Assembly (NCBI GenBank): GCA_038046185.1
Contig: JBBSWR010000144.1
Location: 1-44,182, forward strand
Origin: Nanobdellota archaeon
GTDB taxonomy: Archaea; Nanobdellota; Nanobdellia; Woesearchaeales; GW2011-AR4
DNA length: 44,182 nucleotides
Direction: 5' to 3'
How positions within the stretch are numbered: the stretch's first letter is position 1; each line of letters opens with the position of its first letter. Position numbers and translations under genes: made by a program. The notes beneath the pieces are model-generated. The model saw only the letters and a program-made list of their open reading frames with translations, made no database searches and was not told where the DNA came from. Positions 1 to 39,389 of this stretch are shown here, one piece after another.

Positions 1-1193
1 ATTATGGGCAAAATAGTTCTTATTTAGCATCTACAACAACTAATGTTGATGTTGTTTTGAATACGACAAGAGCAAGCGAGGCAAATGTTACTATAATCGA
101 ATCTCTAAATAACAGCGTAGTAAACAAATTGATAAATTTTAATGTAACGGCAAATATAACCATGCTTGGAAATGATGGAATAGGCTGCAATGCTACAGTA
201 AGTTTTTCCGATGACCAGACTATAAATGTAACCTCCGGGGAAAATCTTACACATGCATTGGGGAATATTCCGTTTGGAAATTCTAAAGTTACTAACTGGA
301 GCCTAACTGGATTACACGAAGGCAGTTCTAATATCACCGTTAGAGCATATTGCGAGTTAGATGGCATAAAACTTGATAAATTGGATTTTTACATACTTCG
401 GAATATTACAATACGAAATCTAGCACCAGTAATAACAAGAATAGCAATAGTTTCACCAATTGATTTGGCAGCTGGCGACAATTTAAGTGTCGAATGTAAT
501 GCCACTGTGAATGAAAATAATACTGTAGCAGATATAAGAAATCTAAATGCTACACTCTATCAGAGTTCGATTGGCCATTATGCTCCTGATGATAATAACA
601 ACCACTATACAAACACTAGCTGCACAAATGTAAGTTCAAATACATTTGAGGCTAATTACTCATGCGGATTTAAGGTTGCATATTATGCCAATAATGGTGA
701 ATGGCAATGTAATGTCAGCGCCGTGGATTTTAGCAATGTAACTGCATTTTTTAATATTTCAACTTCTATAAATGAATTAATGGCAATTGATGTAAGCCCT
801 GCAATAATTGATTATGGAAACTTAAAGGCGACAAATGTCTCAGGTGATTTTAATGTCACAATCAGAAATGTTGGAAATATGCCAATTAATACGACTGTAA
901 GGGGTTTTGCACCCAGTGAGGGCTTGGCTTATTTAAATTTGTCAATGGTATGCGAAAGCAGCAATATATCAAATGCAAATCAAAGGTTTTCTGCTGTAAA
1001 TGGGACAGATTTTACACAAATGACAAAGCTTAATAATGATACTCAAACAATAAATTTAACTCTTCCCCAGAGAACCAACGATCTAAGTTTTGGGAATGAT
1101 TCAAATTTAACTTTTTGGAAACTGCAAGTGCCTCCTCTAAGAGCAGGCATATGCAACGGAACTTTATTGTTTGGGGCTATACCCATGGTTTGA
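1..1193 (+). CDS. Secreted/surface protein very rich in N-glycosylation sequons; 5' end runs off the window (partial)
   Basis: The frame stays open from nt 3 to the stop at 1191-1193 (the track starts it at a TTG at 57). I count about 32 N-x-S/T sequons in the 378 aa shown. The C-terminal block LTLPQRTNDLSFGNDSNLTFWKLQVP..GICNGTLLFGAI is shared with the 10991..11974 product. Confidence 0.6.
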   Translation, partial: YGQNSSYLASTTTNVDVVLNTTRASEANVTIIESLNNSVVNKLINFNVTANITMLGNDGIGCNATVSFSDDQTINVTSGENLTHALGNIPFGNSKVTNWSLTGLHEGSSNITVRAYCELDGIKLDKLDFYILRNITIRNLAPVITRIAIVSPIDLAAGDNLSVECNATVNENNTVADIRNLNATLYQSSIGHYAPDDNNNHYTNTSCTNVSSNTFEANYSCGFKVAYYANNGEWQCNVSAVDFSNVTAFFNISTSINELMAIDVSPAIIDYGNLKATNVSGDFNVTIRNVGNMPINTTVRGFAPSEGLAYLNLSMVCESSNISNANQRFSAVNGTDFTQMTKLNNDTQTINLTLPQRTNDLSFGNDSNLTFWKLQVPPLRAGICNGTLLFGAIPMV

Positions 1194-1206
1194 CAAGCGG
1201 CGTAAA

Positions 1207-2313
1207 ATGAAACGAAACAAAATAGTAAGCACATTCTTTATAATCTTGCTGATGCTGTTATTTTCAGCTGCAACCTCGAAAATAACAAATGCATATTTTT
1301 ACAACATAACTTACAACTGCTTATACGATACTTGCATCAGCGGACAAAATGCAACATGGCATGTCACACTGCTTAATGCTGGAACACAAGAAATCGAATT
1401 TATAAGAATTGGATTATTTGACTCCATAAATAAGAGTTTGTTTGCTTTTCTTGATATTCCTTTTTACCCGAACAGCGATAAAAGAGGCAACTTGATTACA
1501 GTAGGAGCCAATAAAAAGGTTCTTGTAAACATAACAGGCAAGCTTCCAAAAGCTAGTTATGGCAATAACCTTTTGATTTATTATCCCTGTTTTACTGCAA
1601 CTATCACAGACAGCTATATAATAGCCCAGGAAAATAAATATGAAACTACCCACTGCTATTATGTCAATGAAACAATGCTGGTGTACGAATGCATTTCCAA
1701 CGATAATTGCAGGAAAGAGGAATTTTGCAACTTTAATAGCTGCGTTAAACTCAACTGCAAAAATTGCCAGTATATCCAAGACCATAGATGCAGGGATTAT
1801 GAGTGCTGCAGTTCCGGGCAATGCGAATTTAATGAGACATGCTTGAATAATACATGCCAAAATTTAGCCTGTAACTTTGATGAATATATCTACAATAATT
1901 CCTGCAACGCTTTAAGCTGCGCTTTTGACGAGTTTATTTTTAATAAAACATGCATAAAAATAAATTGCGATCTTAACGAGTTCGCTTTCAACCATACATG
2001 CAGGGAATTGAACTGCAGCGATAGTGAGTACTTTGCAAATCACACATGCAAAATGATGGATTGCAAGCAGGAAGAGTATGCGAAAAATCATGCCTGTATT
2101 AAATTAAATTGTCTTAATAACGAAAGTATTTTTAATCACACCTGCAAACCCCTAAATTGTTCCTTTTTTCAGGATATCACTAATCATTCATGCATAAGCA
2201 ATAAAAAGGTTATTTTTAAACTGTCTTTAGAGATAGCAGCTATCATTATGATAGTGCTGTTTTTCGTGATAGATTTTAAAAAATTTGAGAAAAAACGCCA
2301 TGATGAACTATAA
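1207..2313 (+). CDS. Membrane-anchored cysteine-rich tandem-repeat surface protein
   Basis: ATG at 1207 gives MKRNKIVSTFFIILLMLLFSAATS (signal/anchor). C-terminal hydrophobic helix IAAIIMIVLFFVIDF is followed by a basic tail. It contains seven tandem 16-aa units, each with two Cys and an N-x-T/S-C sequon. Confidence 0.65.
   Translation: MKRNKIVSTFFIILLMLLFSAATSKITNAYFYNITYNCLYDTCISGQNATWHVTLLNAGTQEIEFIRIGLFDSINKSLFAFLDIPFYPNSDKRGNLITVGANKKVLVNITGKLPKASYGNNLLIYYPCFTATITDSYIIAQENKYETTHCYYVNETMLVYECISNDNCRKEEFCNFNSCVKLNCKNCQYIQDHRCRDYECCSSGQCEFNETCLNNTCQNLACNFDEYIYNNSCNALSCAFDEFIFNKTCIKINCDLNEFAFNHTCRELNCSDSEYFANHTCKMMDCKQEEYAKNHACIKLNCLNNESIFNHTCKPLNCSFFQDITNHSCISNKKVIFKLSLEIAAIIMIVLFFVIDFKKFEKKRHDEL
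1858..2192 (+). repeat. Seven in-frame tandem ~48-bp (16-aa) repeats inside CDS 1207..2313
   Basis: Units: NLACNFDEYIYNNSC / NALSCAFDEFIFNKTC / IKINCDLNEFAFNHTC / RELNCSDSEYFANHTC / KMMDCKQEEYAKNHAC / IKLNCLNNESIFNHTC / KPLNCSFFQDITNHSC. Confidence 0.8.
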
Positions 2314-3944: not shown

Positions 3945-4328
3945 CTTACCACCCCAAAATGAACTAGATATAAACTAATATATAAATATTACGTTTTTGT
4001 ATAAAGGGTGGGTAAAACATAGAGAATTTTGAATATTATAGATTGCAACAATTTATAATTTATTTTTGACGATTTCCGACGTTTCAAAGTTTCCTATACT
4101 GACGCTGTTGCACAATTAGCCATTTTTGACATTTTTTATTGAATTTACGAGTGAAGCTTCTGGAAAAAGAAGCTCAAATAAGGGTTATGCAATAGCGTCA
4201 TACTTGTCAATTTTTATTAGATGCCCCTCATAAGTTAAAACAAAAGTTTTTAATGACTTTAAGTTCAAAATTGAATTTGGGGCAACTTGGGGTGGATATT
4301 GATGTTTGAAATAAAAAGGAACATATAA

Positions 4329-9011: not shown

Positions 9012-9662
9012 TTGGAAACAATAGATAATGTATATTCAACTAAAATGGAACTAGAATTGTTATTTTCAGACCAAAAGTGGAACATTCTAAAATGCCTTTC
9101 AGAGAATAAGTACAGCCCAATTCAGCTTGCTGAAAAACTTAATACAAGTACTGCTAATATAAGCCAGCAAATGAGGCTGCTGGAAGCGGCAAATCTTGTC
9201 AAAAAGGAAAAAATAAAAAATAGGGACAAAGGCAAGCCAAGAACTTTATTTTCCCTGACAGAAGATTATGCTTACTTGATTCCGGCAATGAATGGTTTTG
9301 CGGATAAGAAACTTCTAAAGGTGCAAGATCATCACAAAATTATTTTGAAAATCTGGTTTTTAGAAAATCCGGATTTGCACCCGCAGCTTGAGTACCTATG
9401 CTGGAAGATTGAGCCTTATCTTGCAAATATAGATGCTATTGCTGTTAATAAATCTTCCAAAATTGTAATTATAGTATCAAACAAGAGAGACGAAATCATG
9501 AAAATTGCTGAAAAAAATAAATCAATAAATGTGGAAGTTTTTTCGATAGAAGAAGCTGAAAGTTATTTGAAACACGGTAAAAAGCCCTTATTTTCGATTA
9601 TTGATTTGGCTATAATTCATGACCGCAATAAAATTTTTTCAAAGAAATTAGTGCCTGTATAA
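9012..9662 (+). CDS. ArsR/SmtB-family winged-HTH transcriptional regulator with C-terminal extension
   Basis: KWNILKCLSENKYSPIQLAEKLNTSTANISQQMRLLEAANLVKKEK..GKPRTLFSL is a typical ArsR HTH plus wing. Start is either the TTG at 9012 or the ATG at 9045. A BRE/TATA-like box lies at 8951-8968. Confidence 0.75.
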   Translation: METIDNVYSTKMELELLFSDQKWNILKCLSENKYSPIQLAEKLNTSTANISQQMRLLEAANLVKKEKIKNRDKGKPRTLFSLTEDYAYLIPAMNGFADKKLLKVQDHHKIILKIWFLENPDLHPQLEYLCWKIEPYLANIDAIAVNKSSKIVIIVSNKRDEIMKIAEKNKSINVEVFSIEEAESYLKHGKKPLFSIIDLAIIHDRNKIFSKKLVPV

Positions 9663-35863: not shown

Positions 35864-36003
35864 TGCCGAAGGGGAGACTTGCATGCGGCAAGCATGCTCG
35901 CTTGCCACAATTTGAACTCCCGACAGACACCTTTCCAAGTTTCCTTATGAGAGTGTCACTCTAGTGCCCAATAGGTTATATTACCAGGCTGAGTTACTTC
36001 GGC
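35864..36003 (-). tRNA. tRNA with CAT anticodon (elongator Met or Ile2-type), apparently interrupted by three introns (D-loop, anticodon loop, T-loop)
   Basis: Hand fold of the reverse complement: GCCGAAG-TA-ACTC-AGCCTGGTA[20 nt]GAGT-G-ACACT-CTCATA[13 nt]A-GGTGT-CTGTC-GGGAG-TTCAAAT[33 nt]CTCCC-CTTCGGC-A. The exon sum is 74 nt. Confidence 0.65.
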
Positions 36004-36949: not shown

Positions 36950-36990
36950 GGATTCACGCAGTATTTCAGAATATTTAAATTATTTCTATA

Positions 36991-37052
36991 GGGAACTTTG
37001 AATAATTCATTATTTTGGCATTTTCATTCAAAGTTCTCTTAGAGAATTTTGA
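36991..37052. repeat. Palindromic intergenic units of the AGAGAAYTTTGAA family
   Basis: gggaactttgaa (36991-37002) pairs with ttcaaagttctct (37026-37038), followed by tagagaattttga (37040-37052). Confidence 0.7.
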
Positions 37053-37140
37053 CATAGAGAAAACCTATCCGGTTTTCGAAATCTGAAAATTTATAATTTT
37101 CAGATAATTGGTAATATTTCAAAATCCCCTATATAAAAAA

Positions 37141-37309
37141 TGGACCGGCCGGGATTTGAATTTCCGTGCCAAAAATCATAGATTTTTTAGCATCCCGGAG
37201 CCTCACCCATGCCATGGGTGCGTTATGTTCTCCAACTGGGGCTTTATGCCCCGAATTTTGGTAAAGCTTTTGGCTTGCCCAAAAGGTTTCCGGATTTAAC
37301 TACCGGCCC
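37141..37309 (-). tRNA. tRNA-Ala (anticodon GGC) with two large insertions/introns in the D-loop (~60 nt) and at the T-stem/T-loop junction (~33 nt)
   Basis: Reverse-complement hand fold: GGGCCGG-TA-GTTA[71 nt incl. D-loop]TAAC-G-CACCC-ATGGCAT-GGGTG-AGGCT-CCGGG[33 nt]TTCAAAT-CCCGG-CCGGTCC-A. It has the G3-U70 pair and A73 typical of tRNA-Ala. Exact splice points are uncertain. Confidence 0.6.
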
Positions 37310-37368
37310 ATCAATCTAAGGATAAACACTGCTGTTTAAAAGATTTTCTTAAAAATGGATTAGAATTC

Positions 37369-37584
37369 TTAGTGTTTTGCTGCCAGCCTTACGTCGCCTT
37401 CATGTACTGTCTTTCTGCCGGCGTGCTTTGCTATCTGCGATGCTCTGGAAGAAATCTTCACTCCAAGGTCTGTAAGCACCTCTGCAAAAGTGTCCACCGC
37501 GCCAGAAGAAACTCTTTTGGCTCCCGCTTTCATCAGAATTCTTGCAACGCTTGCCTTCGGAATTGTAGAAGTTTTCCTGCCCAT
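37369..37584 (-). CDS. Archaeal histone (HMf family, histone fold)
   Basis: IPKASVARILMKAGAKRVSSGAVDTFAEVLTDLGVKISSRASQIAKHAGRKTVHEGDVRLA aligns with archaeal histone A/B in length and motifs. Confidence 0.85.
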   Translation of the reverse strand: MGRKTSTIPKASVARILMKAGAKRVSSGAVDTFAEVLTDLGVKISSRASQIAKHAGRKTVHEGDVRLAAKH

Positions 37585-37700: not shown

Positions 37701-39389
37701 ATGGATCCATCACTAAAACAAACAGTCACAAAGTATGCCCTTCAGAATGCAGTCAAATACAAAGGCAAAGCAAATCCTGGCGCAGTCATAGGGAGAGTTC
37801 TCGGAGAAAATCCTGAACTAAAGGAAAAGGCGCAGGAATTAAGCAAGGAAGTTGTCAAAATAATTTCTGAAATAAATAAATTAGGCTTGGAGAAGCAGGA
37901 AAAGAAACTGCAGGAAATAGCTCCTGAACTTTTAGAGAAAAAAGAAAAGCCGGAAGAAAAAAATATTTTTGCATTTTTGGATATAAGAGAAGGAGAAAAT
38001 GTTGTAACCGCTTTTCCTCCGGAACCGAGCAAATATCCTCATATCGGGCACGCTAAAGCAATAATTGTTAATTATGAATTGGCTAAACATTACAACGGAA
38101 AATTTGTCCTGAGATTTGAAGATACAAATCCGGAGCTTGCAAAAGAAGAATTCTACAAAATACACCTTGACAATTACGAATGGCTTGGGATTAAGCCAGA
38201 CAAAGTTGACCATGCGTCGGACCACATGGAAGAAATGTACCAGTATGCTGAAAAGATAATAAGGGAAAATCATGCTTATATCTGCCTATGCAAGCAGGAA
38301 CAGATTAAGGAGATGAGGAAGGTTGGAATTGAGTGCGAGCACAGGTATTACCAGCCCGATAAAAATCTTGAGTTATGGAAAGAGATGTTCACGGCAAAAG
38401 CCGGGAAAATGATTTTAAGGCTGAAGGGCCACATGCAAAGCCCGAATTCTACTCTAAGGGATCCTGCAATATTCAGGGTTATTGACGAGCCCCATCCACG
38501 GCACAAGAAAAAATACAGGGTATGGCCGATGTATGATTTTGAAAACGCAATAATGGACGGAATTGAAGGCGTAACCCACAGGCTGAGAAGCAAGGAATTC
38601 GAGCTGAGAAATGAGCTGCAGAGGCTGATACAGACAGTTGCAGGCTTTCCTGAAACTAAAATTTACGAGTTTGCAAGATTCAACATGGAAGGGGTTGAAA
38701 GCTCCGGAAGAATCATAAGAGAAAAAGTCCAGAAAAAGCAGCTGATTGGATGGGACGATCCTTCACTGACAACTCTGGTTGCCCTGAAGAGAAGAGGATT
38801 TTTGCCGGAAGCCATTAAAGACTTTGTTTTATCTACGGGATTGACTAAAAATGAATCTGTCCTGACCTGGGATGATTTGATTGTGCACAACAGGAGGCTG
38901 CTTGACAAGGAGTGCAGCAGGTATTTCTTTGTTGAAAATCCAAAAGAAATCAAAGTTGAAAATGCCCCAGAGCAGAATGTTGAATTAAAATTGCACCCTG
39001 AGTCCAAAGAAAGGGGCGTAAGAAAATTCAAGGCAAAAGACAAATTTTACGTTGCTGAAAAAGATTTTAAGGAATTCAAGGAAGGAAAATTAGTCAGATT
39101 GATGGATTGCCTGAATTTCAAAAAAGTTAAGAATAAATTTATTTTTGATTCTGTTGAATATGAAAAGTACAAATCACACGGCGACAAAATAATCCACTGG
39201 TTGCCTGCGCAAAAAGATTTAATCAAGGTGGAAGTGCTGATGCCAGACAAGAAAGTTGCAAAAGGGTTGGCAGAGCCAATGGTTAAGAATTTAAAAATAG
39301 GGGATATTGTTCAGTTCAGCAGGTTTGGATTCTGCAAACTGGATTCAAAGGACAAAGATAAATTAAAGTTTTGGTATACGCATGATTAA
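37701..39389 (+). CDS. gltX: Glutamyl-tRNA synthetase, archaeal/eukaryal type
   Basis: N-terminus YALQNAVKYKGKANPGAVIGRVLGENPEL. HIGH motif PSKYPHIGHAKA. LRFEDTNP and WPMYDFENAIMDGIEGVTHRLRSKEF are class I GluRS/GlnRS core blocks. The length is typical for archaeal GluRS. Confidence 0.9.
   Translation: MDPSLKQTVTKYALQNAVKYKGKANPGAVIGRVLGENPELKEKAQELSKEVVKIISEINKLGLEKQEKKLQEIAPELLEKKEKPEEKNIFAFLDIREGENVVTAFPPEPSKYPHIGHAKAIIVNYELAKHYNGKFVLRFEDTNPELAKEEFYKIHLDNYEWLGIKPDKVDHASDHMEEMYQYAEKIIRENHAYICLCKQEQIKEMRKVGIECEHRYYQPDKNLELWKEMFTAKAGKMILRLKGHMQSPNSTLRDPAIFRVIDEPHPRHKKKYRVWPMYDFENAIMDGIEGVTHRLRSKEFELRNELQRLIQTVAGFPETKIYEFARFNMEGVESSGRIIREKVQKKQLIGWDDPSLTTLVALKRRGFLPEAIKDFVLSTGLTKNESVLTWDDLIVHNRRLLDKECSRYFFVENPKEIKVENAPEQNVELKLHPESKERGVRKFKAKDKFYVAEKDFKEFKEGKLVRLMDCLNFKKVKNKFIFDSVEYEKYKSHGDKIIHWLPAQKDLIKVEVLMPDKKVAKGLAEPMVKNLKIGDIVQFSRFGFCKLDSKDKDKLKFWYTHD

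Follow-up and report, generated by a model that had tools for sequence, protein, structure and literature searches.

A tRNA-Ala(GGC) gene of a Woesearchaeales archaeon with two candidate non-canonical introns, one of them headed by a multi-copy sequence module

We analysed contig JBBSWR010000144.1 (our C144) of the Woesearchaeales (DPANN) assembly GCA_038046185.1, hereafter G000. The window is this whole stretch of 44,182 nucleotides (nt); the assembly comprises 1.44 Mb in 323 contigs, with 37% GC and 78.6% completeness. Our subject is a tRNA-Ala(GGC) gene on the minus strand. The original prediction, made from the letters alone, had placed it correctly at 37141–37309, a span of 169 nt. It had also proposed insertions of ~60 and ~33 nt in the D-loop and at the T-stem/loop junction, with none in the anticodon loop. 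Comparison with orthologues bore out this arrangement and set the lengths at 62 and 33 nt. Below, positions i1–i169 are numbered from the tRNA 5′ end (window coordinate = 37310 − i), and relatives are cited by our genome (G), contig (C) and locus (L) handles. The parts of the gene are as follows.

37141–37309, minus strand: tRNA-Ala(GGC) gene, 169 nt, three exons (20 + 34 + 20 nt) and two introns; spliced form called by ARAGORN, with orthologue comparison.
37290–37309, minus strand: exon 1 (i1–20), 5′ acceptor strand, U8 A9, D-stem GTTA and D-loop AATCCGG to G19; aligned to the intronless L010 and identical to L114 and L021 except for C5.
37228–37289, minus strand: intron 1, 62 nt (i21–82), in the D-loop at G19/C20; boundaries from orthologues without the intron (L021, L114, L015, L010).
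37194–37227, minus strand: exon 2 (i83–116), C20 A21, TAAC, G26, anticodon arm, variable loop AGGCT and T-stem CCGGG; from orthologue alignment and ARAGORN.
37211–37213, minus strand: anticodon GGC (positions 34–36, loop ATGGCAT); ARAGORN on the spliced form.
37161–37193, minus strand: intron 2, 33 nt (i117–149), between 53 and 54; CCGGG-TTCAAAT is continuous in orthologues without it.
37141–37160, minus strand: exon 3 (i150–169), T-loop TTCAAAT, 3′ strand of the T-stem, 3′ acceptor strand and A73; CCA is not encoded.

The exon boundaries were taken from relatives and not from a motif search. Our set of orthologous tRNA-Ala(GGC) genes numbers ~40 and was drawn from the genus and the order. One of these, L010 from another family, is intronless; it is 74 nt long with a D arm of GTTA-AACCTGGTA-TAAC and scores 56.9 bits against the Rfam tRNA family RF00005. 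The closest relative by glutamyl-tRNA synthetase (GluRS; 96% identity) is L021. Its D arm reads AATCCGGCATAAC; both inserts are absent, and an intron lies behind the anticodon stem instead. Compared with L114, L116 and L021 (the last as far as the locus reaches), the exons differ only at positions 5 and 68, and this change is compensatory (C:G to U:A). Chance would not come near such agreement. Because the exons match those of relatives, intron 1 was assigned to i21–82 (G19/C20) and intron 2 to i117–149 (53/54). The designation 19/20 depends on counting C17a.

Deleting i21–82 and i117–149 in silico gave a 74-mer that ARAGORN folded into a tRNA-Ala(ggc) cloverleaf. This has a 7 base pair (bp) acceptor stem (GGGCCGG/CCGGTCC), G18G19, the anticodon arm CACCC-ATGGCAT-GGGTG with anticodon GGC, the 5 nt variable loop AGGCT, and a T arm (CCGGG...TTCAAAT-CCCGG) with a TTCRANY-type T-loop. 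The tRNA-Ala identity elements G3-U70 and A73 are present and are kept in all orthologues. Every exonic element named in the original prediction was found. For the D arm, that prediction had hesitated between GTTA/TAAC and GTTC/GAAC. The intronless orthologue, and the D arm GTTA-AAYCYGGYA-TAAC found in all the others, settle the matter in favour of GTTA/TAAC. We rejected GTTC/GAAC; it would need 5 nt more to be removed and conflicts with all orthologues. The D-loop-like stretch GTTGGAGAAC is the 3′ end of intron 1, made up of helix h′, helix H′ and a bulge.

The exact D-loop junction could be placed differently. Shifted inward by 1 nt on each side (after i21 and i81), it would have a 4 bp TCCG/UGGA helix including a G-U pair, clean 3 nt bulges and an 11 nt D-loop, AAUCCGGAACA; the i22/i84 junction would give AAUCCGGAA. 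The p21/q81 register showed four H pairs in a scan for bulge–helix–bulge (BHB) motifs, and ARAGORN accepted all three spliced variants as tRNA-Ala. By hand reading, the same alternative register is possible in G020. Conversely, the 9 nt loop AAYCYGG-YA occurs in every orthologue without a D-loop intron, and the D arm of the closest relative is reproduced by the i20/i82 junction only. Moreover, four orthologues (L023, L026, L047 and L124) have a perfect 4 bp helix H in the i20/i82 register. We consider the shifted junction unlikely and use i20/i82 below.

We next turn to the splice sites, where the original prediction had made splice-competent BHB motifs the deciding point. At the canonical 37/38 position, exon nucleotides −6 to −3 pair with intron nucleotides −6 to −3 before the 3′ splice site, and the cut falls after the second nucleotide of each 3 nt bulge. 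BHB-type motifs were present at both sites of the tRNA-Ala(GGC) gene, and they covary across species. Their elements are listed here, with ^ marking the predicted cut.

37163–37199, minus strand: intron 2 motif of the helix–bulge–helix (HBh′) type; H is TCCG (37196–37199) with CGGA (37163–37166), the bulges are GG^A and AA^T, and h′ is 9 bp (37184–37192 with 37167–37175).
37292–37295, minus strand: intron 1 helix H, exon strand ATCC (i15–18), pairing with GGAG (37230–37233) through three Watson-Crick pairs and one A-G mismatch.
37230–37236, minus strand: 3′ end of intron 1, with h′ GTT (pairing with AAC at 37286–37288) and H′ GGAG, followed by the bulge AA^C.

The intron 2 motif was the best match of a blind BHB scan (H 4 bp, h′ 9 bp). 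An intron at 53/54 also occurs in three other species, with the same H and the same bulges and with differing h′ sequences. In the alignment of the four species (A1), 98.1% of cells are paired, six h′ pairs have changed on both sides and H is invariant; controls with slid partners gave 19–50%. For intron 1, the 5′ bulge is GG^A, h′ is AAC/GTT (3 bp) and the 3′ bulge is AA^C. The register GG^N...NN^YA is common to 10 orthologues with an intron at the D-loop site. Across orthologues H′ tracks exon nucleotides 15–17a, the combinations being ATCC/GGAT, ACCC/GGGA, GCCC/GGGC, ATCT/GGAT and ATCC/GGGT. Pair 16 is T:A in six, C:G in three and T:G in one. The orthologous h′ helices have 2–9 bp, with at least 5 bp in six. 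As to conservation of position between species, which the original prediction had asked about, the 19/20 register and the 53/54 site recur, and the closest relative by GluRS, L021, has neither intron.

A strict hBHBh′ test, which calls for two 3 nt bulges closed by outer helices, failed. Both introns have a clean 5′ bulge, GG^A; in intron 2 an outer helix h is wholly absent. Read from the sequence, both introns are relaxed HBh′ motifs, not strict BHB motifs. The whole precursor folds more stably than shuffled sequences (z = −3.6), and the local minimum-energy fold contains the D stem and a UCC/GGA helix. Folds of the BHB type appear in constrained and local folds only. Two hairpins that had been noticed in intron 1 are present, at i25–31/i37–43 and at i58–72 (GGGGC-ATAAA-GCCCC). 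We also tried the introns as carriers of a C/D-box guide RNA and rejected the idea. A match to ceN70 snoRNA within intron 1 reached 20 bits against a 65-bit threshold, and both introns lack the C box (RUGAUGA) as well as the D box (CUGA).

The inserts might instead be kept in the mature RNA as expansion segments, for example as an enlarged D-loop, or only one of the two might be removed. On established tRNA structure, 62 nt at G19/20 would upset the interaction of D-loop and T-loop, and 33 nt at 53/54 would break the T arm. The EndA-substrate geometry and the covariation at both sites also speak for removal, and orthologues freely lack the inserts, so that these have no conserved tRNA function. 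Retention is thus extremely improbable.

The gene appears to be needed. No second Ala(GGC) gene was found in the G000 assembly, at its 78.6% completeness, and in 334 long open reading frames of G000, 41% of the Ala codons are GCU or GCC. A single tRNA-Ala(GGC) gene would hence have to serve them. In G020, which is 99% complete, the sole Ala(GGC) gene found bears a D-loop intron; the other match there is an intronless Ala(CGC) gene. ARAGORN also reported a "tRNA-Ala(ggc)" at G000:C186:309–411 (minus strand). This candidate was discarded: with G3:C70, it is read as a tRNA-Ile(UAU) gene that has a 26 nt canonical intron and a perfect CTTA/TAAG helix. The flanks of the Ala(GGC) gene hold two further elements.

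37335–37350, minus strand: putative promoter AAGAAAATC-TTTTAAA, a TATA-like box centred ~29 nt before the mature 5′ end.
37135–37140, minus strand: run of six T directly behind A73, a likely archaeal terminator.

The promoter motif, AAGAAAATCTTTTAAA, also stands ahead of the orthologous genes in L021, L023 and L033. Standard searches overlook the gene. On raw window DNA ARAGORN called only a tRNA-Ser and missed the unspliced Ala gene, and Rfam gave no match at the gene, either at the gathering threshold or at E-values up to 10. This could be expected of a disrupted pseudogene, in which two insertions of repeat DNA had killed a tRNA gene that is no longer spliced into a working tRNA. Intron 1 does begin with a repeat that is also present outside RNA genes (see below), its helix H is imperfect, and G017 has a truncated 5′-half copy with the D-loop intron. 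The exons, however, are free of degenerative change, the compensatory pair being their sole difference from close relatives. The gene has retained its promoter and terminator, and the splice motifs covary. In addition, the same intron occupies the same site in the sole Ala(GGC) gene found in the 99%-complete relative, and the codon demand is met by no other Ala(GGC) gene found. The check for an intact second copy, proposed with the original prediction, was negative in the G000 assembly. We regard a pseudogene as very unlikely.

The truncated copy in G017 (L003/L146, G017:C37:~9402–9496) is an Ala(GGC) 5′ half with the D-loop intron, ~900 nt from an intact Ala(GGC) gene without one. It may be a remnant of duplication or of integration.

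Enzymes that could process the transcript are encoded in G000. There is one EndA gene, on C53 (L101:1195–1788), for a protein of 197 amino acids (aa) with matches to PF01974 (102 bits) and PF02778 (55.9 bits). Among solved structures, those nearest to it are the N. equitans α subunit and the M. jannaschii α4 enzyme; the catalytic Tyr, His and Lys align with M. jannaschii EndA. The 6-residue insert found in N. equitans α between the catalytic Tyr and His is absent. A single EndA gene was found in each of five genus genomes that are at least 90% complete. These sequences suggest that the EndA of the genus is of the α4 type, made from a single ~200 aa gene per genome. RtcB is encoded too (576 bits). 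At the EndA locus (L101, G000:C53:1403–4663), EndA has a Lys/Glu-rich N-terminal extension of ~30 residues and is divergent to a gene for a 296 aa protein of the β-lactamase fold, which by eye looks like RNase Z. If so, two genes for tRNA processing share one intergenic region.

Taken together, the locus is very probably a functional tRNA-Ala(GGC) gene, with both introns cut out by EndA, the exons joined by RtcB, and with a D-loop intron that is a copy of a multi-copy element. The gene would be transcribed from its own TATA-type promoter into a pre-tRNA of ~170 nt, containing the 62 nt D-loop intron (19/20) and the 33 nt intron (53/54). At each site four exon nucleotides, 3–6 nt upstream of the 5′ splice site, would pair as helix H with the four intron nucleotides just before the 3′ bulge. 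The intron-internal helix h′ would close the other side and leave the splice sites in 3 nt bulges, a relaxed HBh′ motif. The single EndA would then cut both bulges and RtcB would join the exons. The expected product is a 74 nt tRNA with G3-U70, A73 and the D arm GTTA-AATCCGGCA-TAAC.

Several observations weigh against this view. At 78% completeness, a second Ala(GGC) copy is not strictly excluded. By hand analysis neither intron has a clean outer helix h and both motifs are relaxed. In intron 1, helix H has only three Watson-Crick pairs and an A-G mismatch, and the 3′ bulge is effectively a 2 × 5 internal loop beside the D stem. The global minimum fold (−64.7 kcal/mol) pairs the D-loop CCGGA with the T-stem TCCGG, and the BHB fold lies at −52 to −58 kcal/mol. 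A loose BHB scan, with G-U pairs allowed, returned more than 100 candidate pairs in 169 nt, and the intron 1 motif alone is not significant; since the generic scan is so unselective, we relied on comparative data for intron 1. Finally, relaxed motifs are published as substrates of (αβ)2 and ε2 EndAs (PMC5829648), and the EndA of the genus looks like α4. It aligns without gaps to M. jannaschii EndA over the matched part, residues 50–197.

The D-loop intron has relatives elsewhere. Its repeat-related parts, and further copies in G000, are listed here.

37256–37288, minus strand: 33 nt module at the 5′ end of intron 1, consisting of AACC, a T4-5/A4-5 hairpin with a variable tip and a CTTNACCAAAA tail; model R1, 52.8 bits, E 2.4e-11, alignment A2.
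37238–37252, minus strand: second intron 1 hairpin, GGGGC-ATAAA-GCCCC, which is also found in related introns of other tRNAs.
Elsewhere in G000, at contig ends: longer copies of the repeat at C184:7571–7694, C26:~80–214, C51:1–~80, the end of C161, and C16:~960–1050.

A covariance model found 1–17 copies of the module per genome in 42 of 43 genus genomes, roughly 230 copies in all. Of 120 other genera of the order, each from its own family, 33 gave matches too. We inspected by eye the contexts of ~60 of roughly 330 matches, and for most family members the BHB boundaries were set by hand. In G000 itself the module heads introns of tRNA-Thr(TGT) and tRNA-Pro(CGG). In relatives it heads D-loop introns of Glu, Ala(CGC) and a tRNA(CAT), T-loop introns (~59/60), and anticodon-loop introns of Thr(CGT) and His. 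It also heads an intron at 53/54 in a class II tRNA of G005, which matches the whole of intron 1 at 92% over 62 nt. The Thr(TGT) and Pro(CGG) introns in G000 (C30:~3985–4173, minus strand, and C232:~1045–1300, plus strand) are long and lie in the anticodon loop. The Pro(CGG) gene has a T-loop intron as well, and the T-loop of Thr(TGT), CGCACAT, is unusual.

The module also heads inserts in one 5S and one 16S rRNA gene of relatives. The 5S gene (L012, G007:C76, ~locus 1412–1570, minus strand) scores 53.9 bits in Rfam and measures 159 nt against a 120-position model. A 44 nt insert between CCCAT and CCCGAAC starts with the module and has BHB-like ends (TCCC/GGGG, AT^A, AA^C). The 16S gene (L148, G041:C7, locus 664–2258, minus strand) is a full-length archaeal gene of 1399 bits; the match covers 1595 nt against a 1478-position model. 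Its insert starts with the module inside the GGATTAGATAC/CC primer-site region (GGATTAGATACCC region). A simple BHB rule fits the ends of the 5S insert and does not fit those of the 16S insert. In the RNA-gene copies inspected, the module is always in the sense orientation and begins 1–3 nt past the predicted 5′ splice site, and the 4 nt preceding the 3′ bulge agree with the local exon.

Outside RNA genes, several copies directly adjoin a protein-gene start codon and run antisense to the gene; guaA and a rimK-like gene are the G000 cases, and copies often lie at contig ends. The longer copies are ~125 nt and have extra hairpins and a long-range CTTGAC/GTCAAG pairing. Ahead of guaA and of the rimK-like ATP-grasp gene they are antisense, and 2 nt separate them from the start codon. 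The copy upstream of guaA occurs in only 2 of 29 genus genomes and is absent from the closest relatives; it is therefore an insertion polymorphism. By hand, no BHB-type boundaries were found for the copies beside protein-gene starts or for the 16S insert, and we do not call these introns. Rfam assigned the repeat copies to no family, with a sub-threshold GcvB match only. At G000:C264:6803–6836, and in L163, L177 and L178, the module closely follows a tRNA gene, on the other strand from it, and has a copy of the tRNA 3′ end on each side. On sequence, this arrangement looks like an integration-type duplication.

The module-bearing repeat is most likely a mobile element. Because it occurs in many RNA genes and at intergenic sites of the order, the D-loop intron most likely arrived by insertion at the DNA level. 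On a fuller account, the intron was inserted recently and stems from a hairpin-plus-tail element (AACC, the T/A-arm hairpin and CTTNACCAAAA) that is mobile at the DNA level throughout the order. Such an element would enter tRNA, 5S and 16S genes in one polarity, at the future 5′ splice site, and survive where its 3′ end pairs with the exon as an EndA substrate. Protein-gene starts would be further landing sites, and there the element may serve as a promoter or a leader. We give this fuller account an even chance of being right.

The pattern among orthologues is one of rapid change. Ala(GGC) genes have 0–3 introns and are 74–268 nt long, with inserts at ~19/20, 21/22, 37/38, 43–45, 53/54, 56/57 and 59/60; within the one genus there are at least seven positions, in varying combinations. 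Gene structures differ between genomes whose GluRS or GuaA are ~94–96% identical, and three structures are found at ~95% protein identity. Among Ala(GGC) orthologues the D-loop intron is a presence/absence polymorphism, found only in G000, G020 and G012; the closest relatives lack it. Besides the Ala(GGC) gene, the one Ala gene found in G000 is tRNA-Ala(CGC) (L212, G000:C194:3978–4111, plus strand). It has a short D-loop intron (ACAACC-TTTTAGGAAAA-TGTTG-CGGA) and a 32 nt T-loop intron of the TTGNNGAAAGCGAGCA...GCATGCAAG family, which recurs at 59/60 in many Ala(GGC) orthologues. Large non-canonical introns had been called unusual in the original prediction. This did not hold: G000 has other interrupted tRNA genes, and such introns are ordinary in the lineage.

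Around the Ala(GGC) gene in the window lie genes for an archaeal histone (37369–37584, minus strand), GluRS (37701–39389, plus strand) and a metallophosphoesterase. The stretch that separates the phosphoesterase gene from the tRNA gene contains a 14 bp inverted repeat, AGGGAACTTTGAAT...ATTCAAAGTTCTCT (36988–37041), with sub-threshold mir-3047 matches on both strands. It may be a terminator or a protein-binding site. At a distance of 1.1 kb, the original prediction had proposed a tRNA(CAT) with three introns (35864–36003, minus strand); its 33 nt T-loop insert may belong to the 59/60 family.

These results bear on gene finding first. An Ala(GGC) gene invisible to ARAGORN and Rfam makes genomes of this group seem to be without tRNA-Ala(GGC), unless intron-aware methods are used. 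At least seven intron positions in one orthologous gene within a genus amount to a closely spaced natural record of introns gained and lost. A repeat that has intron copies as well as non-intron copies bears on how archaeal tRNA introns arrive, which a 2026 preprint on Asgard tRNAs still calls open (10.64898/2026.10.13.758758). A single small EndA beside many relaxed motifs questions the rule that only (αβ)2 and ε2 enzymes handle such introns. If the mobile-element account is true, archaeal tRNA intron birth could be seen in the Woesearchaeales from both ends, donor and product, and the apparently plain α4-type EndA of the lineage must cut relaxed motifs.

Non-canonical and multiple BHB introns, including those at 20/21 and 53/54, are known from Thermoproteales and Nanoarchaeota (Marck and Grosjean, 2003; Sugahara, 2007, 2008; PMC4090602). 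The gene described here resembles these in having protein-spliced introns outside 37/38, two or three per gene, with relaxed HBh′ motifs whose helix H takes one of its strands from the exon. It differs in its host, a mesophile-type, low-GC member of the Woesearchaeales with apparently a single EndA gene. The D-loop site is also 19/20 in our numbering and not 20/21, and the intron complement differs here even at 96% GluRS identity.

Multi-intron tRNAs of DPANN archaea are already published, and a twice-interrupted gene is ordinary for the lineage. The survey by Kaneta et al. (2018; PMC5829648) covers a Woesearchaeota genome and reports many non-canonical and multiple introns in DPANN with α4-type EndA. 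It links the disrupted tRNA genes of DPANN to α4-type EndA with inserted loops, and takes incomplete DPANN tRNA sets as a hint of undetected disrupted genes. The Ala(GGC) gene was missed by ARAGORN and Rfam in the same manner. Conversely, its available text presents neither a single Woesearchaeales tRNA-Ala structure nor an intron family, and the EndA of G000 is without an insertion relative to M. jannaschii EndA over residues 50–197. The α4 EndA is regarded as strict in published work; Kaneta et al. nonetheless tie DPANN α4 enzymes to disrupted tRNAs.

Archaeal 16S and 23S rRNA genes also have BHB introns, and EndA substrates have been reviewed (PMC7714728). The module-headed inserts in the 16S gene of G041 and the 5S gene of G007 may be set beside these; both copies are in relatives and not in the window. 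Our literature search returned no report of a 5S rRNA intron, of a Woesearchaeales intron family or of intron-type repeats at gene starts.

Intron families common to several isotypes are reported to be nearly absent in Asgard archaea (bioRxiv 10.64898/2026.10.13.758758). They are known from Thermoproteales, where intron transposition has been published (Fujishima, 2010, as cited in PMC4090602). As with those transposed introns, related intron sequences occur here in differing isotypes and positions, namely the D-loop, 53/54, ~59/60 and the anticodon loops of Thr, Pro and His. Unlike the Thermoproteales families, the Woesearchaeales family is defined by a short invariant 5′ module and not by identity of whole introns. 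Its copies are also found in 5S and 16S rRNA genes, beside duplicated tRNA 3′ ends and directly upstream of protein-gene starts, and it spans many families of one order.

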